Shown: positions 7,351 through 60,456 of the stretch, piece after piece | Layout of the letters: each line of letters opens with the position of its first letter | Position numbering within the stretch: the stretch's first letter is position 1 | Sequence record: OL770107 | From: Escherichia phage CLB_P2 | Direction: 5' to 3' (one strand) | DNA: 64,000 nt | Translations under genes and position numbers: made by a program | The notes under the pieces: generated by a model | Told to the model about the DNA's origin: nothing | The model's input: only the letters and a program-made list of their open reading frames with translations | The model's database searches: none

Positions 7351-10300
7351 TTATGGTGTATCAATCCATTCGAATTTAACAGAACGAGTTACCGGGTCCG
7401 GAATTATACGAACGTTACCAATACGCAACCAATCACGAATGGTCAAGTTACTCATTGAAGCATTATCAGAAGGTAATGCACCGATATCAGACGGTTGAGG
7501 TGGATTACCGCCATCAAATACCTGAACAAATCCAGACCAAGCATTTTTATTTTGCTGCCAAGTACGAGTCCAACGAGTAGTGCTTCCGTCTGCAGTATTT
7601 GGATAGGTAATCCAATCCTGGTAAAGTGAATTCAGAGTGTTACCGAACTGAGTTAACGTACCAGGCGATTTAACTTCTTCACCACGAACCAAATACGGCA
7701 ACCCTGTTACTTCGTTAATTTTTTCAACCATTTTAAAATAACCAGGGAATTGGTTATATGTGGCTTCGTCATTAACGTCAACAGACCAAAAGCCGGTATT
7801 GTCTGCATTAGGTTTTCTGGAATAAAGGTCGGCAGGTTTAGTACCTTGAGAACGAATTCTCGAGTTAACCGTTAAACCACCTGAGTTAATAGTTGCGCCT
7901 TTGGCAATAATAAGACCTTCGCCAATTGTAACCTGGCCAGATGTATTACTAATAGCTAATGGTCTTAATCCATTAAAGCCACCTGTTTGATCGCCTGAGT
8001 CGGTCAGCATAAAATAGACATTAGAGTTATCATTACGAATAAAGAATCCATAATTACCACTAATTGCTCTAAATGCGTTCGAACTATAAGATATAAATTC
8101 GCCCTGAGCTGTAACCGAACGACCGAATGTTGCAACGCCATTCACATTCATTAACCCGGAAGCATTCACATTTATCGGCATTACAGTACCATTAATGCTA
8201 AACGCTATATTACCATCTTTATTGCGTTGGGAATAAAAATGGTTAGACGTTTCATCACCGACTTCAAACACGGTAGAACGACTCGTATCCGAACCACCGC
8301 CATACTGGTTACCCCATACACGGATGCTCATTGACTGAACCGGGTTAGTTCCTGTTTGAGGGCCCTTTTCAAATACTATACGAGTAGCCGTTCCCGTGTT
8401 ACGGATAGTAAATGTACTATTAGCAGCTAAAGAACCACCAAATTCACCGGTACCGCCTGTAGCCAACTGGCCATCCACTCTGATGTTTTTACGAAGGGTT
8501 AATGTTCCTTCAACTATTTGGTCGATATCTCTCCTGACGAACTGAGAGCTATCCAGGTTGTCCAATTTATCAGAGTCAAAAGCCTTACCTTTAATCGGAA
8601 GATAGTGAGTTAACGCCGTATTCAATTGAAGAGGGGAAATAGCAAAGCCGTTGTCTTCAAATTTGGCCAGGTTAGCAACAGAACCATTAGTATCGTCACC
8701 TTCCCAAGTGGCTGTACCTGTAGTTAATTTAACATATCCTCTACGAGCAGAAGTAGCTTCCCAGGATTTTTCCTGTTGGACGATATATTTGTAATGCTTA
8801 GGACTAAACGCTTTATTACTTACCGTACCATCAATAACTTCGGCCTGAGTAGCAAGCTGGATAATACCTTCGGCATTTTCGGTAGCCTTTTTAGCTTGAA
8901 GCTTAAGCGGAGTAATGATTGTTTTATCATCGGTTCCGGTATTAACTTCAGTTTGGGTAGCCAAACGGGCCGTACCACGTTGGGTATTACTTGCTTCACG
9001 GATATCTAGTGTATAATGGTTCCATAAGGTTCCTGATTCAACCAAACCACTGGCTACTGAGACAGAAGTTCTAGCAGTATTATCAAATCTTGTTTTAATT
9101 TTCAACGGAGTTGAAATAACATTATCTAATACACCTGCATCAAATTCTACTTGAGTACCAATACGAGCAATACCAGTTAAAGTCTCTGTAGCCTTCCTAT
9201 CATTTAACGTCTTAGGCGTTACCGCACGAGTATAATCAGTTCCAGCATCAGTTTCCTGTTGCGTAGCAATTTCAATTAAACCATGATTGGTATCAGTAGA
9301 ACGACGAGCACCTAATGTTTCAGGTGTGACAACCGAGTTACTAAAACCAGGGTTAGTAGCACCAGCATTAACTTCGGCTTGCGTAGCAAGATATACAGCA
9401 CCTTGGTTATTTTGGTCGGCTTTATACTGGTCCAAAGCTTTAGGAGAAATAACTAAAGTAGTAGTGTTCTTATTATAAACGTTGGTACCTACAGTTGCTC
9501 TGGAGTCCGCAGGAGTGGTTCCTGTGGTAGATACATATTTTACTATACCAGATAGGCTTTCGGTTCCCTGGCGCGTCTGTAGCTTCTTAGGAGTGATAAT
9601 GGTTGTATCATCAACACCTGCATCAGTTTCCTGTTGCGTAGCAATTTCAGCTACACCACGACGAGTTTCGGTAGCAGTACGTTCGTTTAATTTCTTAGGA
9701 GAAATAATCAAATCGTCCTGGAAAGCGAAAGTTGTATTCTGGTTTACCTGAGCAGTTGTAGCAATACGAGCAATACCACGACGTGATTCGGTGGCAACAC
9801 GATTAGCTAAAGTCTGTGGAGTAATTGCAAGTTCTTTTTCAGGATTATTTTCATGGTCGACGTTTGCCTGGGTCTGAGATGCAAGGGCAATAACACCGAG
9901 ACGAGCACGAGTTAAATCATCCTTAGAATCCACACGTTCTACAGTAGGAACGTTCTGAGCAACCACCCAGTAGTTAACGTTAATATCTGTATCTTCAAGA
10001 TAACTTAATTCGATAACCGGAGTATAACTTAAGTTACCATTAAAGGTCAATACGTCATTCAGAACCCATTCAGTATCCGGTGGATATTCCGAACGTTTAG
10101 GGAACTGGAGCAATTGAACCGAAGAAGCAATTTTATCACCTACAGCAGCCTTAATATTTACTGTCTGGGCTTTACGAAGGTAGTTCAATGCGATTTTAAT
10201 AGTATCGCCTTGCGCTACGTTAGTAGGTAAAGTGATATTAATAGTTTGTGGAGTTGTGTTATTAGGACCAAAAACAATAACACTTTCATTAGCCAAGAGC

Positions 10301-50711: not shown

Positions 50712-52124
50712 ATGGCTTTTACTGTAAGTATAGCCGGCGCTGCGTCTATTAAAATAGGCGAAAGCGCCAACTACACTGCTACCGCAACAGGTGCAGCTGT
50801 AGAAGGAACCGTTACATATGTATGGACCATTGACGGTGCTTCTAATCCGGAGGCAACCAATGTTTTGAGATATACCGGTGCGGCTCCAGCTGGTAAGAAA
50901 GTTTTAAAAGTAGTAGCAACTTCTACTCCGGCCGAAGGCGAACCTGAGGTAGCTGAAAAAACTTTTGAAGTTACCGTAGCTAATAAGACCATGACTATTT
51001 CTTTGGCCTTAGACCCTACTTCCGTTTCTAAAGAAATTGGCCAGTCCCAAGTTGTTACTGCTAACGTGACGGGTGCTCCTGCTGGTGCTACAATTGCTTA
51101 TGTTTGGAAACGTAATACAACTGTAATTTCAGGACAAACTGGTAAAACTATTACTGTAACCGAAGCAGCAGAAGCAAATTACACGTTGAACTGTGAAGTT
51201 ACTGTTACCGCCCCTGAATATGACCCGGGTACCGCTACTAAAGGTGTTGCGGTAACTTTTGTTAAGAAAACTATATCAGGTGCTTCCGTTACTTTAACAC
51301 CAGCCTCAATTAGTACAGAGAAAGGCTCATCTGCACAGTTTAAAGCGGATGTAGTTGGCGCTCCTTCCGGCGTAAATGCAACTTATTCTTGGAAGAAAAA
51401 TGGTTCTATTATTCCAGGCGAAAGCAGTAATATTCTTGCCGTCGATACATCTACAATAGGTTCTTACTCTATTGAAGTTTCGGTACTCCTAAAAGGTACG
51501 GATTATAATGATTTAACCGTTACCAAAACAGGAAGTGTAACAATTACTAAAAAGACTATGGCAGGTGTTTCTGTTAATTTAACGCCTGCTTCTATTACTG
51601 TCTCTGAAGGAATCCCGGCTTCTTTTAAAACCACGGTAGTCGGTGCGCCTAGTGGTGCTACTTTTGCTTATTCTTGGAAGAAAGATGGTTCACCTGTTGT
51701 GGGTGCTACGGATACATTAGTAATTGACACAAGCGCTGAAGGTTCACAGGTTATTGAAGTTTCTGTTGTGGTTTCGGCTACCGACTATAATTCTGTGACC
51801 GTCACAAAATCCGGTAATGTAACAATTACGGCTAAAGTCGCTCCTGAACCAGAGGGCGAACTACCTTACGTTCATCCGCTACCAGTTCGTAATTCAGCTT
51901 ATATTTGGTGTGGTTGGTGGGTTATGGACGAAATTCAGAAAATGACCCTTGAAGGCAAAGACTGGAAAACTGACGAACCTGATAGTGAATATTATCTCCA
52001 TCGTTATACCCTTCAAAAAATGGTAGCCGATTATCCTGAGGTTGATGTACAGGAATCTCGTAATGGTAGAATTATTCACAGAACCGCTTTGGATGCTGGA
52101 ATTATTTACGATTACGTTTATTAA
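50712..52124 (+). CDS. hoc: Hoc capsid decoration protein with four Ig-like repeats
   Basis: 470 aa; four repeats of about 90 aa each with a Y-W-K pattern; C-terminal capsid-binding block IWCGWWVMDEIQKMT...YPEVDVQESRNG as in T4 Hoc. Confidence 0.8.
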   Translation: MAFTVSIAGAASIKIGESANYTATATGAAVEGTVTYVWTIDGASNPEATNVLRYTGAAPAGKKVLKVVATSTPAEGEPEVAEKTFEVTVANKTMTISLALDPTSVSKEIGQSQVVTANVTGAPAGATIAYVWKRNTTVISGQTGKTITVTEAAEANYTLNCEVTVTAPEYDPGTATKGVAVTFVKKTISGASVTLTPASISTEKGSSAQFKADVVGAPSGVNATYSWKKNGSIIPGESSNILAVDTSTIGSYSIEVSVLLKGTDYNDLTVTKTGSVTITKKTMAGVSVNLTPASITVSEGIPASFKTTVVGAPSGATFAYSWKKDGSPVVGATDTLVIDTSAEGSQVIEVSVVVSATDYNSVTVTKSGNVTITAKVAPEPEGELPYVHPLPVRNSAYIWCGWWVMDEIQKMTLEGKDWKTDEPDSEYYLHRYTLQKMVADYPEVDVQESRNGRIIHRTALDAGIIYDYVY

Positions 52125-52389: not shown

Positions 52390-52405
52390 GCCCTTTATTA
52401 TTTTT
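52376..52405. terminator. bidirectional terminator
   Basis: GGGCC-CGTA-GGCCC flanked by AAAA and TTTATTATTTTT; overlaps stop codons of both convergent ORFs. Confidence 0.6.
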
Positions 52406-53264
52406 CAGGAGGGACGTAAACTAAGTCTTTCCTTTCTAAGATGTAGCCATTTCTCGACTCTTGTATCTCTACTTCAGGATACTTAGACAAAAGGTCGGCT
52501 ACTTTTTGTAACTCACATTTATACTTGTATGGGCTGTTGTTTATATCCAAAGTCCAATCTTCTCCCAATCTAACGGCTTCTCTTATTTCGTCCCATACCC
52601 ACCAACCTATCCACATATACGATTCATTTCTTCCACCGCCATATGGTAAATAAGCATTAAGGTCGTTATCATATATGAAAGGGCACTGCAATACATCATC
52701 CCTAGGTTTTATTTCAACTAAAAGTTCTTCAGAAGCAGGGATATATGCTCCTTCGCAGGTCGCTATAGATTTTAATGTATAATCTCCAAATTTATCAGGG
52801 TCGTCTATTAATATATCAATATCTTCGTCTTTAGATAATTCTACTCCATCTCTATACCATCTACAAATTCTTTCGGCATAAGTGGGTTCCACTCTACACG
52901 ACGGGCGAAGTGAAACTGTTTCTCCTATATTGGCATATATTAATTCCCTAGAGTTTATATCTAGGACTATTCTTCTTGGAAGGGTACCTATTTCAAGTTC
53001 TATTTCGTTACTCTTTGTTATTTCACCACTTTTCTTATTTGTTATGGTCGCATAAAATGTTCCTGCCGCCGGGAATCCTACTTCCCATAAATTTAATTCA
53101 AAAGGGTCTTCGGTAGGAAGTTGTGGAATATGGACATCGTTTTTATACCAATTAATTTCTACATCATCTAGAGTAGAACCGGGTGGTAATACAAACCCGG
53201 TATAAAAGGTTACTGTCCTGCCAACCAATTCATATCTAGGACCATTTATTTTAAGTACAATCAT
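52398..53264 (-). CDS. second Hoc-like Ig-domain protein with Hoc-type capsid-binding C-terminus
   Basis: 288 aa; Ig-like motifs INWYKNDV and CRWYRDGVEL; C-terminal block MWIGWWVWDEIREAV...YPEVEIQESRNG parallels the Hoc tail; AAGGAGG RBS. Confidence 0.6.
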   Translation of the reverse strand: MIVLKINGPRYELVGRTVTFYTGFVLPPGSTLDDVEINWYKNDVHIPQLPTEDPFELNLWEVGFPAAGTFYATITNKKSGEITKSNEIELEIGTLPRRIVLDINSRELIYANIGETVSLRPSCRVEPTYAERICRWYRDGVELSKDEDIDILIDDPDKFGDYTLKSIATCEGAYIPASEELLVEIKPRDDVLQCPFIYDNDLNAYLPYGGGRNESYMWIGWWVWDEIREAVRLGEDWTLDINNSPYKYKCELQKVADLLSKYPEVEIQESRNGYILERKDLVYVPPEK

Positions 53265-53273
53265 TTAACCTCC

Positions 53274-54779
53274 TTAAAACGTGCTCATATTGGTATGGTC
53301 TTCGACAGAAAATAAAACTTCAACAGGGATATCTGTAGTCGTATTAAGAGGGCCGCCTACAATAAACACAGATACAGTGTAGTATTTTCTAGTATCACGG
53401 TCAAATATTTCGTAACGGTTAAATTGTCTTGCACTAGAATAAGCCAAATCGTCGAATAATTCAGGAGATGATGACCACAACACATTACTCCAGTTGGCAC
53501 ATTCTATTCCGTTTTCATAGTTGGTAAATCTTTTAATATCAAGCCTATTAGTAAGACCTGCATTAGTAGCCCTTATATGGATGCCTACAGATGAGTACAT
53601 GCGAACATGAAGAACCATATTAAGGTCCCACAAACGTATTTCCTTCCACTCTGAAGTGTTCAGAGGCTTATCAAATCTTAAAGAGCCTTTCCAATATCTA
53701 GGTGGATAGAATGGGAAAAGTTTATCATATAAAGATTTTAATTGAGACTGGGTTAAAGAATCGACATCAAATACTGCATCTTTGCCTGGCGCACCTGCAG
53801 GACCTATAGGACCTTGAATACCTTGAGGACCTTGATCGCCTTTTTCACCTTTAGGTCCTGGATTACCTTGTGGACCCTGCGGCCCTTGAGCACCGGGCGC
53901 GCCATCTTCTCCTGGATATCCAGGTCTTCCTTCTTGTACAAACAAATGCCAATAATCAACCCATAGGTCTCCACGGCCTGGATAACTATCATTATTTGCT
54001 ATATTGTCCTGAATACAAATCCAAGAAGACCCTTCGCACTGGACTAAATCATTTACATAATAAGGTGTGCCAGGGTCCCAGTTTCCGGCCCAGATAAACC
54101 CATTACCATCTTGGCCTGGCGCGCCTTGTGGACCTTGAGGGCCGGTTGGGCCTGTTGGTCCTTGAGGACCTGGTGCACCGATATTAGCCAATAGCGCCCA
54201 AACTCCTTCGCTAGGAGGTATTGTTCCTGTATTAGAACTGATGCAAAAATAAGAAGCTCCCTGGTATCCAACTGCATCGTCTTTAGAGTATTGGGTAGAT
54301 TCATCCCAGGCTCCCTTCCACACCAAACCTGCCGGGCCTATAGGACCTTGTGGTCCTTGCGGTCCTACTTCTCCTTGGGCCCCTTGTAAACCCTGAGGGC
54401 CTTCTTTTCCTGGTGAACCCGGGTCTCCTTTAGGACCTTCTGGACCTGCTGGTCCTGGTTCGCCCTTTTCTCCTTTAGGACCCGGGTTACCTTGAATACC
54501 TTGCGGCCCTGGGTCTCCTTTAGGGCCTTGTGGACCTTCAGTACCAGGTGTTAGCATCTCATTAGTTATACCTAAATGGGCCAACGCGCCTTCCCTAGAA
54601 GCTTGTTTTATAAATTCAAGTCCATAACTTTGAGAAGAATCCAACATAGTAGGGTCTAAGGTGCTTTCACTAGTGAGTATGTCTGCAAATTCCAATGATT
54701 TATCCTGCGGAACTTCTACTAATGATACGCCTCTAAAGTGACCTCTACCGTCATGCCCGTATAATGGATTGTCTGACAT
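53274..54779 (-). CDS. collagen-like triple-helix repeat protein with Trp/Tyr-rich interspersed modules
   Basis: 501 aa; three Gly-X-Y blocks (about 24, 9 and 17 triplets) separated by two 50-aa modules (W.GAWD...Y..D.V.Y.G..Y.C...P....W); 180-aa C-terminal globular region. Confidence 0.8.
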
Positions 54780-55175: not shown

Positions 55176-56183
55176 ATGTTCAAGAAATATAGCAGTCTGG
55201 AAAACCACTACAACAGTAAGTTTATCGAAAAACTCCGTACCAATGGTTTGACTGGTGGTGAATGGGTAGCACGTGAGAAGATTCACGGAACCAACTTTAG
55301 TTTAATCATAGAACGTGACGCAGTCACATGCGCCAAGCGCACTGGCCCAATTCTCCCTGCCGAAGATTTCTATGGCTATGAAATTGTACTTAAGAACTAT
55401 GCTGATTCTATTAAATCTGTTCAACATCTAATCGAATCCATTAATTATCAGTCATATCAAATTTATGGCGAGTTCGCTGGTACAGGTATCCAGAAGAATG
55501 TGGATTATGGCGATAAAGACTTTTATGTATTTGATATCCGTGTTACTAAAGAAGATGGTACCGAATCCGTTTTAACTGATACCCTTATGGAAGCTTTCTG
55601 TATTATTCATAAGTTTAAGGTTGCTCCGTGCTTAGCCACAGGTAGCTTTGAAGACCTTATTAAACTGCCGAATGATTTTGATTCTGTTATCCCAGATTAC
55701 AATTTTGCAGTGGATAACGCAGGTTTAACCATTGCTAACTCAACCGATTTTATTCCTAAGGTCGAAGGTAAAGTATTTACGGCTGAAGGCTTTGTACTGA
55801 AACCTGATGTTCCTATCTGGCTGCCTAATGGAAATCGTGTAGCAATTAAATGCAAGAACTCTAAATTCAGCGAGAAGAAAAAGTCTGATAAGCCTATTAA
55901 GGCCGCAGTAATATTGTCCCAAGACGATATGGACTTGATGTGGCAATTCACCGATTATGTGACTGTTAACCGTATTAACAACGTTATCAGTAAGATTGGT
56001 GAAGTATCACCTAAAGATTTTGGAAAGGTAATGGGACTGACGGTCCAAGATATTTTGGAAGAGGCAGCCCGCGAAGAATTAGAATTAACCGATGCAGAAA
56101 ACCCTGTTGAAGTTAAAAAGCAGCTTATCGAGTGCGTTAAAGATACGCTACGAGCTGTGTGGATTGAATTAGTATCCAAATAA
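55176..56183 (+). CDS. rnlB: RNA ligase 2
   Basis: 335-aa ORF; adenylation lysine motif [10 protein letters not shown]; near-identical to T4 Rnl2 over the N-terminal 90 aa and C-terminal region. Confidence 0.9.
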
Positions 56184-56187
56184 ACAA

Positions 56188-56218
56188 TAAAGGGACCTTA
56201 CGGTCCCTTTTATTTTTC
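56188..56218. terminator. bidirectional terminator between rnlB and the head gene operon
   Basis: AGGGACC-TTAC-GGTCCCT flanked by A- and T-runs. Confidence 0.6.
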
Positions 56219-57490
56219 TAGTGGTGGAAGTTTAACACCGAGATAAGAACTCAACTGACTTTGATTAGCCATTTTGTCCATATCCGAACCATCAATAATG
56301 CGAGCTTCTTTATCGTCCTTAGCGACGGTATAAGGGTTTGCAGTCAATGCATAACGAGCAAGCAATGCTACTGTAGGTTGTAAGCTTTCCGGGTCAACAA
56401 TAACCTTAAATTCACCTACTGAAGTATCACCTTCTTCATCAACCACATCCAAACCTTCCGTATAAGGCGCATAATATAAAGATGCGACCGTCTGTCCTTC
56501 ACCCATCTGAGCATTTACACCAACAATAACATAATCACATGGACTATTCATATCGGCATAAAGAGGTAGACCATTCTTTAATACACCATAAGCCAATTCA
56601 TCTTGGTCTTCCTTTTTCTCAACCCAACCGGAAGCGGCGAGAATAGCAGCACAACGAGAACTAGCTACTGCATAAGTCCCAGCGAAAGAAGTTTGACGTT
56701 GGACGGCAGAGTTCATCTCACACATGTAATAATATAATGTACGAGCACGGTCCTGGGCATTATCATAACGTGGGTTAGTAAGGTCCAATACGCCCTTTTC
56801 AGAAACACCTTGGACTTTAAAACGAGAACTCACCGTAATTAATGACTGTAATACGTCCTTATTAATTTCTTCTGCCATTTGAATGCCTAGCAGATTTTCA
56901 ATGAAATTAGGAGCATTAAATCCGTTTGATTCTAGGTCTTGGGCCAATTCGACTGTCAACGAAGTTTTCAGTTTACGTGATTTAACTTCAGATTGCCATT
57001 TGTCAATACGGAAGCCTGCTTCAGCAATTTCAGGATGGCCTTGTTCGAATTTAGAAGTAATAGCAGCATCTGATACCATACGAATATGTCCGGCCGCCAC
57101 TGCTTCAGAAATAACTTCACCGAGGTCGGTTTCCGTGGTTCCGGCGAAAGGAGATGCTTCTAGAACTTTAAACACTACACTTTCAAACTGGAACATATCG
57201 CCGGCTGCATAAGCTGTAGACGAATCGGTAAATTCAGGAATATTTTCACGTTCCGACATACCAATCTGACCTGCAAATGTGGCGCCACCAAGATAAGTCA
57301 TTTTGTCGTCAGGATTAAGTACACGAACCCCGTACAGAGCGGCCACAGGTTGGCTTGTTTTTTGTTCAGCAACTAGGGCTTTAAAGATTCGTTTATTAGT
57401 TGCTTGGGTGTATGAAAGAAGAGCAGGACGGCCAACCGAGTTGGCAGCCGTCAATGTGGATTCTTTAATTAGGTCTATAATCTTAGACAT
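56210..57490 (-). CDS. gp24-like head vertex protein, diverged paralog
   Basis: 426 aa; about half of positions shared with the upstream gp24, incl. RKLKTSLTVELAQDLESNGF, INKDVLQSLITVS, YAPYTEGLD and LTANPYTVAKDDKEARIID. Confidence 0.8.
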   Translation of the reverse strand: MSKIIDLIKESTLTAANSVGRPALLSYTQATNKRIFKALVAEQKTSQPVAALYGVRVLNPDDKMTYLGGATFAGQIGMSERENIPEFTDSSTAYAAGDMFQFESVVFKVLEASPFAGTTETDLGEVISEAVAAGHIRMVSDAAITSKFEQGHPEIAEAGFRIDKWQSEVKSRKLKTSLTVELAQDLESNGFNAPNFIENLLGIQMAEEINKDVLQSLITVSSRFKVQGVSEKGVLDLTNPRYDNAQDRARTLYYYMCEMNSAVQRQTSFAGTYAVASSRCAAILAASGWVEKKEDQDELAYGVLKNGLPLYADMNSPCDYVIVGVNAQMGEGQTVASLYYAPYTEGLDVVDEEGDTSVGEFKVIVDPESLQPTVALLARYALTANPYTVAKDDKEARIIDGSDMDKMANQSQLSSYLGVKLPPLEK

Positions 57491-58773
57491 TAATCAGCCT
57501 CGTAAATAATTGCTGGAAGTTTAACACCAAGCAGATAGGACATATTACTCTGACCGGCCATTAAATCCATATTGGTTGCATCGATAACACGAGCTTCTTT
57601 ATCGTCTTTAGCTACGGTGTACGGGTTAGCGGACAGTGCATAACGAACCATCAGAGAAATAGAAGGCTGTAATGAATCCGGGTCGACAATAACCTTATAA
57701 GCACCAACGTGTTCTTGGTCGTCTAAATCCAGGCCTTCTGTATATGGGGCGTAGAAAATAGAACCGACAACTTCATTACCACCATAGTTCTCTTTAACAC
57801 CTACGATAACATAATCCAATGGGCTGTTAACGTCGCAGAACAGAGGTAATCCATTCAACAAATAACCATAGGCCGTTTCTGGGAGCCAATTATTATCTTC
57901 AGGTCTATGTTTTAACCAGCCAGAACCTGCAAGCATTGCAGCCACACGACTTGAAGCCACAACAAACGTACCTGAATAAGAAGTAGTTTTCTGGATTTCA
58001 GAATTCATCTCACAAACAATTTCATAAAGTTTACGTGCAGATTCTGGAGCACTATCATAAGTCAAATCGATGATGCCATTATCAGATACACCCGTAACTT
58101 TATAGCGTTTGGATACGGTTATTAGAGATTGCAGAACATCTTTATTAATTTCATCTGCCATTACCGTAGCCAGGAGGTCTTCTAAGAATGCAGGGGCGTC
58201 GAAGCCATTTGATTCCATATCCTGTGCTAATTCTACGGTCAAAGCAGTCTTCAATTTACGGGTCTTAACAGGGGCATTCCATTTATTAACCTGGAATACA
58301 GCATCAGAGATTTCTACATCACTCTCTTCAAATTTAGTGGTATGGGCTGCATCAGGAACCAAACGACACGTTAATGACACCAAACCTTCTTGAAGAGCAT
58401 CGGCCAATTCTGTAGCGCTAGTGGATGCGAGTGGGCTTGCTTGAAGAGCCTTATAAACCACATTCTGATACTTAAAGTAGTCACCCTTGGCAATCGCCTG
58501 GGCTTTATCTGTGAGTTCCGGGATAGTTTCACGGTCTTTAGAACCAACTTCACCACCATAAACTGCACCGGTTTGGAAACTGAATTCATTATCAGGGGTA
58601 AGATATTTGACACCATACAACGCAGCGATAGGTTGGTTTGTACGTTGTTCAGCGATGATATCGCGATAAATTAGTTTAGTGGTAGCACGGGTCAAAGCAA
58701 CAAGATTAGGGCGACCCAATGAGTTGCTGGTAGTAGTTGTTGACTCGCGCAGTAATTCGTTAATCTTTGCCAT
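57490..58773 (-). CDS. 24: head vertex protein gp24
   Basis: 427-aa ORF (T4 gp24 427 aa); N-terminus MAKINELLRESTTTTSNSLGRPNLVALTRATTKLIY nearly identical to T4 gp24. Confidence 0.9.
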   Translation of the reverse strand: MAKINELLRESTTTTSNSLGRPNLVALTRATTKLIYRDIIAEQRTNQPIAALYGVKYLTPDNEFSFQTGAVYGGEVGSKDRETIPELTDKAQAIAKGDYFKYQNVVYKALQASPLASTSATELADALQEGLVSLTCRLVPDAAHTTKFEESDVEISDAVFQVNKWNAPVKTRKLKTALTVELAQDMESNGFDAPAFLEDLLATVMADEINKDVLQSLITVSKRYKVTGVSDNGIIDLTYDSAPESARKLYEIVCEMNSEIQKTTSYSGTFVVASSRVAAMLAGSGWLKHRPEDNNWLPETAYGYLLNGLPLFCDVNSPLDYVIVGVKENYGGNEVVGSIFYAPYTEGLDLDDQEHVGAYKVIVDPDSLQPSISLMVRYALSANPYTVAKDDKEARVIDATNMDLMAGQSNMSYLLGVKLPAIIYEAD

Positions 58774-58801
58774 TGCGCTTTCCTTATTGAGGGTATATGT
58801 T

Positions 58802-58809
58802 TATTTATA
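58802..58809 (-). promoter_or_regulatory. late promoter core TATAAATA for gene 24
   Basis: Minus-strand TTTTATAAATAAAC about 30 nt upstream of gp24 start. Confidence 0.5.
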
Positions 58810-58815
58810 AAAGTT

Positions 58816-58845
58816 GTTTACAGCAAGGTTCCCACGTGTTACTAT
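58816..58845 (+). promoter_or_regulatory. early-promoter-like element pointing antisense into gene 23
   Basis: Plus-strand GTTTAC, 18 nt, TACTAT, followed by the hairpin at 58863-58880. Confidence 0.35.
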
Positions 58846-58862
58846 AGTACAGAAACAAGAAT

Positions 58863-58880
58863 GGGAGACCGAAGTCTCCC
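58863..58880 (-). terminator. hairpin terminator after gene 23
   Basis: GGGAGAC-TTCG-GTCTCCC on the minus strand followed by ATTCTTGTTTCTG. Confidence 0.5.
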
Positions 58881-58896
58881 ATAATAAGGTTAGGTC

Positions 58897-60456
58897 TTAG
58901 ATACCTTTAACATAAACGCGACGGAAGTAACCATTCAGACCGAGGCTGTTAACGATGTCCGGCATACCATTCTGAATACGTTTGGTAGGTGCCTGAGCAG
59001 CTGGGTCAGCGAACGGGTTAATACCGATACCGTAACGAGTTTTGAAGCCCATTACCGGCTGGAAGTTCTTCGGATCGGAACCGCGCAGTGGGGTCAGTGC
59101 AACGTAAGGGGCGTAGTAGATACCTGCGTCCATTTCGTTGGAACCTTTATAACCGATGGTGAAGTAATCAGCACGGGCATACTGGTCGATGTAAACGCGA
59201 TATTTACCACCAAGAACACCGGCAAATACTGCTTTAGTGGTGTCAACGTTGAAACCTTGACCCAGACCTTGAGCTGCATAACTTACAGAAGTATCAACTG
59301 CAGCCAGTACGTTAACTACGTTACGGGAAGCGATGATGAAGTTACCAGCACCACGACCGGTCTGACGAGCGATTTCGGCTGCTTCTTTATCAATCTGGAA
59401 CAGAAGGGCTTTAAAGCTCTCACCGGCCCAACGAGCACCACGGATATCGATCGGGTCCTGGAAGTCAAACACACCAGCTTTAGCGCCAACGGTGTTGGTC
59501 ATACCAGATTTACCAACCTGTGCAGAGTAGTTAATCCAATCAATAACTTCACGGTTGATTTCGAGCATAATTTCGGTAGCAAGGATACCGGACAGTTCAG
59601 CATCTGCATCCATACCGTGTACTGCACGAAGGTCCTGTGCCAGTTCGATGGAGTAGCTTGCTTTCAGCTGACGGGATTTAGCTTCGATAACTTGTTTATC
59701 GATACGGAAGCCCATTTCGTTCCACGGGTTGTCCTGAGAACCGTTAAAGCCTTCCTGAAGTTCAGCGATAGAAGTAGCCATACCTTCAGCCAATTCAGCC
59801 AGCTGACCAGCTTCCAACAGAGCGGTTACGGCAACATCCAGTTTAGCAGCATCGGTAGCAGCAGCATCAACGGTTACGGCTTCAACAGCCTGGAAGTGTG
59901 CAGAACCGGTAGCTTCGAAGAAGTGAGAATAAATTTTACCAACTTCCAGAACTTTACCTGCAGCCAGTGCTTCAAAAGTCTGAGCAGCACCCTGACCAGA
60001 GAACATAGCATTCGGAGCATACATCGGGTGGAAAGCTTCTTTAGCGCCAGCAGCGATAGGGTCTTTACCGTATACTGCGCGCAGTGCAAATACCTGGCCG
60101 GTAGGGTTATTCAGAGGCTGAACACCACAAATATCAAAAGCAATCAGATGAGGAATAGCACGACGAACCATACCCATTACTGCCGGCCCAATCTGAGTTA
60201 CAGCACCAGAGGTCTGGCCAGCTGCGATATTGGTAGCATCATAACCGTGGTCACCACCGATTTCAGCTTCAGTCAGGAAAGAACCAAATGCTTCGGAGAT
60301 TTTTTCGTCACGATATTCAGGAGCGGTCAGAATATCTTGTTCCTGGTTTTCAAAGATTTTAGCGATGATAGCTTGTTTAGAAGCACCAACGATTTCAGGA
60401 AGAGCTTCGTTTTCCAGCAGAGCGGACCATTTTTGTACTAATGCATTCTTTTTCAT
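58897..60456 (-). CDS. 23: major capsid protein gp23
   Basis: 519 aa; long identical stretches to T4 gp23 (IIAKIFENQE, GGDHGYDATNIAAGQTSGAVTQIGPAVMGMVRRAIP, QLKASYSIELAQDLRAVHGMDADAELSGILATEIMLEINREV). Confidence 0.95.
   Translation of the reverse strand: MKKNALVQKWSALLENEALPEIVGASKQAIIAKIFENQEQDILTAPEYRDEKISEAFGSFLTEAEIGGDHGYDATNIAAGQTSGAVTQIGPAVMGMVRRAIPHLIAFDICGVQPLNNPTGQVFALRAVYGKDPIAAGAKEAFHPMYAPNAMFSGQGAAQTFEALAAGKVLEVGKIYSHFFEATGSAHFQAVEAVTVDAAATDAAKLDVAVTALLEAGQLAELAEGMATSIAELQEGFNGSQDNPWNEMGFRIDKQVIEAKSRQLKASYSIELAQDLRAVHGMDADAELSGILATEIMLEINREVIDWINYSAQVGKSGMTNTVGAKAGVFDFQDPIDIRGARWAGESFKALLFQIDKEAAEIARQTGRGAGNFIIASRNVVNVLAAVDTSVSYAAQGLGQGFNVDTTKAVFAGVLGGKYRVYIDQYARADYFTIGYKGSNEMDAGIYYAPYVALTPLRGSDPKNFQPVMGFKTRYGIGINPFADPAAQAPTKRIQNGMPDIVNSLGLNGYFRRVYVKGI

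Follow-up and report, generated by a model that had tools for sequence, protein, structure and literature searches.

An ancient tandem pair of gp24-type capsid vertex genes in the Dhakavirus Escherichia phage CLB_P2 and its relatives

T4 is the reference model for the building of a prolate capsid, and its gp24 is the textbook example of how the major capsid protein gave rise to a dedicated vertex protein. The present analysis deals with two consecutive gp24-type genes, here called 24a and 24b, in a stretch of 64,000 nucleotides from Escherichia phage CLB_P2 (record OL770107), which is referred to as the window. The window belongs to Dhakavirus. Over a 2.8-kb region it is 100% identical to CLBP2, 99% to dhaeg and dhabil and 97% to JS10, and on the protein level JS10 reaches 98.6% identity for 24a and 99.5% for 24b. 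The same gene order gp23-24a-24b-rnlB with a tight junction is found in JS98, JS10 and IME08 (Dhakavirus), VR5 and VR20 (Gaprivervirus), in CGG4-1 and in S16 (Gelderlandvirus). JS10 and JS98 possess a small opposite-strand open reading frame (ORF) between gp23 and 24a that the window lacks; nothing essential differs.

The two genes are named 24a and 24b in JS10 and IME08, with the label “gp24 head vertex protein” in JS10, and JS98 has two “capsid vertex protein” genes. VR5 and VR20 use the names “capsid vertex protein I/II”, Salmonella phage CGG4-1 “head vertex protein I/II” and S16 gp108/gp109. A 24b at least 80% identical to the one of the window is present in about 91 phage records, and with a distant, FBB1-type 24b as query about 126 records had a best match of at least 60%. 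All 40 of the FBB1-type 24b matches listed had at least three gp23-family places (gp23 plus two gp24). The gene pair is already publicly annotated in over a hundred related phages and is not a discovery; as such it adds little. The literature searched yielded no paper that treats the two gp24 genes, nor one on what the second gp24 does, whether it is part of the virion or how it is built. What is added here is that the pair is ancient, that 24b is derived but strongly constrained, that 24b never occurs alone and that the gp24 of T4 lies inside the 24a clade.

Both ORFs are intact, run on the minus strand and lie directly 3' of gp23. 24a (57490..58773) encodes 427 amino acids (aa) and is, by Pfam, identity and clade, the orthologue of the T4 capsid vertex protein gp24. 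24b (56210..57490) encodes 426 aa and is, by Pfam, its match in the PDB and clade, a derived gp24 paralog of the “capsid vertex protein II” type. These positions and lengths are exactly those of the original prediction, which was made from the sequence alone and had described a tandem duplication of the vertex gene. It was also right that the second start overlaps the first stop: the junction reads TAATG, in which the TAA stop of 24a (57492-57490) and the ATG of 24b (57490-57488) have one base in common. In BLASTP, 24a and 24b aligned over their whole length with 241 identities in 428 positions (56%), 77% positives, three small gaps and E=0, which lies far above chance. Both are full-length gp24-type proteins, and their description as tandem paralogs is right. 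The identical blocks that had been listed are present, except that the block given as CDYVIVGV has only DYVIVGV in common, preceded by L in 24a and C in 24b.

The family membership of both proteins is clear. Pfam PF07068 (Gp23 family) matched 24a with E=2e-98 over profile positions 3-376 of 376 and 24b with E=3e-97 over positions 2-376 of 376. In the PDB search, residues 1-423 of 24b matched the solved T4 gp24 (1YUE, 7VS5, 5VF3, 8GMO) with E=4e-152, while gp23 was matched with E of about 1e-11. 24b is 54-63% identical to single-copy gp24s versus 25-29% to gp23s. Across 24a, 24b and the single-copy gp24s, 92 columns are invariant, including core motifs of the HK97 fold. With 57% identity over residues 1-423 to the solved T4 gp24, 24b is expected to adopt an HK97-like fold with an inserted I domain. 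24a is 70.8% identical to the T4-type gp24 of RB55 and 24b 56.6% to T4 gp24. Measured against T4, the second copy is thus indeed the more diverged one, as had been claimed; among the phages that carry the pair, however, 24b is conserved equally well or better.

For the comparison with relatives, gp23 + gp24 loci of 20 isolates and seven metagenomic contigs were sampled, and all trees were neighbour-joining trees with bootstrap; the support of the groupings was compared over nine schemes that differed in distance correction and in the columns used. Tegunavirus and two more Acinetobacter phages contributed only proteins to the trees, and gp24 copy numbers refer to the other phages, where loci were at hand. 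Two gp24 genes in tandem are carried by Dhakavirus, Gaprivervirus, part of Kanagawavirus (IME523, Kosakonia 305), Marfavirus, Gelderlandvirus, Roskildevirus and FBB1-like phages. T4-type phages, Mosigvirus, Moonvirus, Karamvirus, PEi20, PM2, EcS1 and Serratia 4S have one gp24, and so do Jiaodavirus, Winklervirus, Acinetobacter phage ZZ1 and Slopekvirus. Wherever a 24b-type gene was present in the isolates and the seven metagenomic contigs examined, it lay directly behind a 24a-type gene.

The 24b-type proteins formed one clade with 100% bootstrap in all schemes, with no 24a or single-copy gp24 inside it. The 24b of the window grouped there with 24b of JS10 and IME08, vertex protein II of VR5, gp109 of S16 and copy 2 of Cronus. 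The a-type clade (85-97%) comprised 24a together with gp24 of T4, Mosigvirus, Moonvirus, Karamvirus, PEi20, PM2, EcS1 and Serratia 4S. The genera branched in the same order in the 24a and the 24b clade, namely Roskildevirus and FBB1-like phages first, followed by Marfavirus, Kanagawavirus, Gelderlandvirus, Gaprivervirus and Dhakavirus. A recent local duplication was rejected: 24b and 24a of the same genomes were grouped in 0% of the bootstrap replicates in the nine schemes, and between 24a and 24b of the window the synonymous divergence (dS) is saturated at about 2 with a third-position identity of 42%. Given the matching branching order, the closed 24b clade and the fact that a recent grouping was never recovered, the pair is older than the separation of Roskildevirus-like from Dhakavirus-like phages. 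It goes back to an ancient duplication common to at least six genera of Tevenvirinae, not to a local one. T4 and the other single-copy phages in the a-type clade either lost 24b or stem from lineages that exchanged an a+b cassette. No remnant of 24b is to be seen in PEi20 or T4, because only about 30 bp lie between gp24 and rnlB.

At 15 diagnostic columns of the alignment, 24a-type and 24b-type proteins each have a different, nearly fixed residue. Seven outgroups from Tevenvirinae and Acinetobacter phages showed the 24a state at 11-14 of these positions and the 24b state at one to three, while the distant Slopekvirus Miro was less decisive with seven 24a-like and five 24b-like positions. As the outgroups are mostly 24a-like, the derived state is that of 24b. 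Eight of the 15 positions correspond to T4 residues 25, 26, 32, 34, 36, 56, 57 and 72 and are thereby located in the N-terminal arm and linker 1 of the I domain. The residues of the 24b state (in T4 numbering) include L25, S26, N32, R34, F36, R56, V57 and F72, and the 24b of the window belongs to this set. L34, Y57 and P244 are side chains of 24a to which R34, V57 and Q244 correspond in 24b. In the expanded head of T4, gp24* uses residues 26-29 to pair with the I-linker of the next subunit of its own pentamer, and its residues 11-20 stretch across the gp23 hexamer beside it (PMC9546572).

The origin of 24b can also be read differently. It could be a xenolog that was acquired laterally from a distant T4-like phage and placed beside the resident gp24, after which the a+b cassette was moved by homologous recombination. 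Trees rooted with Miro put 24b outside the a-type clade, near gp24 of Acinetobacter phages, Jiaodavirus and Tegunavirus; the genera with tandem genes are not monophyletic in the gp23 tree, where Marfavirus stands with Karamvirus and JD18; and there are signs of local recombination within the pair, as 24b of TH41 groups with JS98 and its 24a does not. On the other hand, no single-copy phage falls within the 24b clade, so that no donor lineage was seen, and the 24a and 24b topologies mirror one another. The 24a-like outgroups moreover make the basal position of 24b look like a long-branch effect, and its deep placement is probably affected by the long stem branch of the clade. Lateral acquisition is therefore judged possible, if on the whole unlikely. 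The choice between it and a duplication in situ with losses in T4-type phages concerns the origin only, and both are compatible with a role of 24b as a vertex subunit.

Gp24 of Klebsiella phage JD18 (Jiaodavirus) is the nearest single-copy relative of 24b with 63% identity and is just as close to 24a (63.4%). At 11 of the 15 diagnostic sites it shows the 24a state, it falls outside the 24b clade and it has no tandem copy. Being no nearer to one copy than to the other and of the 24a type at the diagnostic sites, it was rejected as donor of 24b.

Divergence along the head module (56210..60456) is mosaic when compared with JS98, with dS of 0.16 for gp23, 0.74 for 24a and 1.09 for 24b. In TH41 (Gaprivervirus), 24b groups with the 24b of JS98, while 24a branches outside all Dhakavirus 24a. 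The mosaic dS values and the discordance of TH41 point to recombination, with break-points located between the two gp24 genes and around them.

Selection on 24b was assessed by the ratio of nonsynonymous to synonymous substitution rates (dN/dS) in pairs with unsaturated dS. It amounted to 0.020-0.085 for 24b, 0.020-0.065 for 24a and 0.023-0.062 for gp23. Between Dhakavirus and Roskildevirus or FBB1-like phages, identity was 68-71% for 24b and 62-64% for 24a; within the pair-carrying clade, 24b is better conserved than 24a at long range. Gene conversion or concerted evolution was rejected as cause of the blocks that are identical in both copies. Of the 239 identical residues, only 113 have the same codon in both copies, no stretch of identical nucleotides is longer than 17, and the identity of 24a and 24b within one genome is not above that between genomes. 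The blocks reflect constraint on the protein level, as judged from this codon usage.

That 24b might be a decaying duplicate or an assembly artefact is a negligible prospect. Its lower identity to T4 gp24 would fit, and nothing else does. The 24b ORF is intact in about 126 independent phage records and seven metagenomic contigs, a record with 100% identity exists, and a dN/dS of 0.02-0.08 gives no sign of relaxed selection. A frameshift in the second copy, which had been named among the outcomes that would speak against the prediction, did not turn up: both ORFs are intact in CLBP2, dhaeg, dhabil, JS10 and many more. Lacking frameshifts and stops in relatives and with a dN/dS far from 1, 24b was rejected as a pseudogene.

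The site of the prohead protease is retained in both proteins. In T4, ten N-terminal residues are trimmed from gp24 by the prohead protease gp21 (PMC9958956, PMC9546572). 24a begins with the propeptide MAKINELLRE (58744..58773, minus strand), the same as the ten residues that gp21 removes from T4 gp24. The putative propeptide of 24b, MSKIIDLIKE (57461..57490, minus strand), keeps the L-[LI]-x-E|S motif, which reads LLRE|S in 24a and LIKE|S in 24b and is kept in 13 out of 13 sequences of the 24b clade that were examined. Both proteins are thus predicted to be cleaved by gp21 in this phage. The 24a of five Roskildevirus-like loci (L016-L018, L022 and L025) has an N-terminal extension of three residues (MSKQYKINKLLRE|S).

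24a and 24b are probably an ancient, vertically co-inherited pair of vertex (penton-type) proteins, in which 24b would act as a second, specialised subunit alongside 24a. 24a would have retained the ancestral character of gp24. After the duplication, 24b would have passed through a burst of change, mostly in the N-terminal arm and I-domain linker 1 with their contacts within the pentamer and to the gp23 hexamer, and would then have been frozen, with purifying selection on it no weaker than on 24a and gp23. Because the full gp24 architecture and the N-terminal protease site are kept, 24b is expected to enter the prohead shell and to be trimmed by gp21. As it was never found without 24a directly upstream, it would work with 24a and not instead of it. 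The favoured, tentative arrangement would have separate homopentamers of 24a and 24b at different classes of the 11 non-portal vertices of the prolate head, possibly one apical versus ten shoulder vertices. The original prediction had offered an alternative vertex protein as one explanation of the second copy, and this appears to be the best class of explanation, with the amendment that 24b is neither degenerating nor fast-evolving and has a dN/dS of 0.02-0.08 like 24a and gp23.

Several points weigh against such a division of labour. In T4, all 55 gp24* subunits at the 11 vertices have nearly the same structure (PMC9546572), and there is accordingly no obvious structural need for two types of penton in a prolate head. 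One gp24 suffices in T4 and many relatives. For the deep position of the 24b clade with respect to gp24 of Jiaodavirus, Tegunavirus, Acinetobacter phages and Winklervirus, support was only 42-65%. A model of 24b by AlphaFold2 from a 30-sequence alignment had a mean predicted local distance difference test score (pLDDT) of 46 and a predicted template modelling score (pTM) of 0.30; it was too poor and was set aside. Finally, no proteomic or structural paper on any phage with two gp24 genes was found in the literature searched. The paper on Kosakonia phage 305 contains no virion proteomics, and the sole virion mass-spectrometry table found in the literature refers to Jiaodavirus phages with a single gp24.

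The success of T4 with one gp24 also fits the idea that 24b is an interchangeable spare, i.e. an equivalent penton of which either copy can fill any vertex and which is kept for dosage, for robustness towards host or temperature or for escape from a host factor. Both copies keep the core gp24 motifs and the cleavage site, and one late unit, described below, would co-express them. Plain redundancy is rarely so long-lived, however, while this pair is kept in at least six genera with a dN/dS of 0.02-0.08 on both copies. 24b moreover has fixed, derived and clade-wide substitutions at contact elements, and its absence without 24a is unexpected for equivalent copies. A mere spare is hence considered unlikely.

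A function away from the vertices, with 24b as decoration protein, component of the core or scaffold or decoy for a host defence that senses capsids, would agree with its derived and fixed set of residues and with the expansion of other head-surface genes nearby (two Hoc-like genes and a collagen/CBM protein, see below). It is nevertheless very improbable. 24b has the full-length gp24 architecture without loss or gain of domains, including the 92 invariant columns, and the cleavage motif of a shell subunit is conserved. No similarity to Hoc, Soc or scaffold proteins (gp22, gp67, gp68) was detected in 24b, PF07068 being the sole Pfam match, and Hoc-like and scaffold genes are encoded elsewhere in the window. 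The decoration or scaffold role that the original prediction had also considered is not favoured, given that 24b has retained the whole gp24 architecture together with its invariant core motifs and the L-[LI]-x-E|S site.

The preferred reading of 24b as a specialised vertex subunit is accompanied by signals which suggest that 24a and 24b form one late bicistronic unit, with a common TATAAATA promoter, the TAATG junction and an own ribosome-binding site of 24b, and a terminator after 24b. The T4-type late promoter box TATAAATA is located at 58802..58809 on the minus strand, 28 nucleotides (nt) upstream of the 24a start. Boxes of this type matched 13 times in the window versus 6.45 expected, with a single match between gp23 and the end of 24b, and a scan of the window gave no late promoter box upstream of 24b. 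Shine-Dalgarno sequences were read from the sequence as AAGGA for 24a (58781..58785, minus strand) and as GAGG for 24b (57498..57501, minus strand); the latter is placed 7 nt before the ATG and still inside the 3' end of 24a. A terminator-like hairpin follows gp23 (58861..58882, minus strand), and a bidirectional one on both strands (56189..56210) closes the 24a-24b unit as well as rnlB, the convergent gene for RNA ligase 2 (55176..56183, plus strand). The major capsid protein gp23 (58897..60456, minus strand; 519 aa) is 99.4% identical to gp23 of JS10.

The head genes are arranged in the order gp20-67-68-21-22-23-24a-24b, and the pair thus takes the usual position of the gp24 family directly downstream of gp23. 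A tight junction of -4 to +1 nt between 24a and 24b was found in JS98, IME523, Kosakonia 305, pzk-kv8, S16, Cronus and metagenomic contigs and holds in every relative examined. The spacer between gp23 and 24a (58774..58896) measures 123 bp in the window. At this place an opposite-strand ORF of about 267 bp is located in JS10, JS98 and Mosigvirus, the homing endonuclease segD in the T4-type phage RB55 and an endonuclease gene in Winklervirus Gravdalen, Serratia 4S and Slopekvirus Miro. The junction of gp23 and gp24 is a hot spot for insertions.

Two Hoc-like genes for head decoration are encoded near the gp24 pair, so that a second family of capsid-surface genes is present in two copies. One of them (50712..52124, plus strand) encodes 470 aa with several immunoglobulin-like domains and the other (52398..53264, minus strand) 288 aa. 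Similarity between the two proteins is confined to the capsid-binding module at the C terminus (46% identity over 71 aa, E=6e-18). Both copies are annotated as hoc in JS10, while JS98 has one.

The collagen/CBM protein (53274..54779, minus strand) is 501 aa long and combines triple-helix repeats of the collagen type (Pfam E=2e-23) with two carbohydrate-binding modules, CBM_5_12 (E=5e-11). Its counterpart in JS10 is shorter (335 aa) and labelled “tail fiber-like”. In Erwinia phage Cronus (E=1e-37) and in an FBB1-like contig (E=2e-31), a homologue is encoded directly 3' of 24b and in the same orientation. There are hints that the protein is a head-associated fibre. A strict linkage to 24b was rejected, as the gene is absent from JS98 and the examined S16 locus, and Aeromonas phage 65 also has its C-terminal domain. 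In the Roskildevirus-like loci, the order is gp23-24a-24b-fibre-structural protein: the collagen-like gene and a gene for a “putative structural protein” of 165-166 aa come after 24b on its strand. IME523 has a third, opposite-strand gene of 1464 bp labelled “capsid vertex protein gp24” (7370..8275 of locus L003). It matches by position the “tail fiber protein” of Kosakonia 305 and the collagen-like gene of the window, and its label is probably a mis-annotation.

A wider proposal can be put forward, doubtful as it is: the state with two gp24 genes would be the older one in much of Tevenvirinae, the single gp24 of T4 would be the result of a secondary loss, and 24b would form the penton at a defined subset of vertices, where it may dock the collagen/CBM5_12 fibre-like protein.

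A second vertex paralog has long been kept under strong selection in many coliphages that are therapeutic candidates and in Salmonella phages (JS98, JS10, S16 and relatives). The T4 picture of one type of penton at all 11 vertices would thus not be general. The pair offers a tractable system for the question whether non-equivalent vertices of a prolate head are built from different proteins. If 24b did occupy a defined subset of vertices, these would be the first T4-type heads with chemically distinct classes of vertices.

Compared with known systems, T4 gp24 has the same Pfam family, full-length homology, place after gp23 and N-terminal L-x-E|S site as 24a and 24b. The difference is that T4 uses a single gp24 at all 11 vertices, while here a derived paralog has been added that carries fixed changes in the N-terminal arm and in linker 1 of the I domain. 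The pair also resembles the older duplication that gave rise to gp23 and gp24, in which an HK97-fold capsid gene was likewise duplicated in tandem, the copies became specialised, one for hexamers and one for pentamers, and they are adjacent in the late head cluster (PMC9958956). Gp23 and gp24 are only about 21-29% identical and their distinct roles are demonstrated, whereas for 24a and 24b, with 56% identity, a division of labour is proposed.

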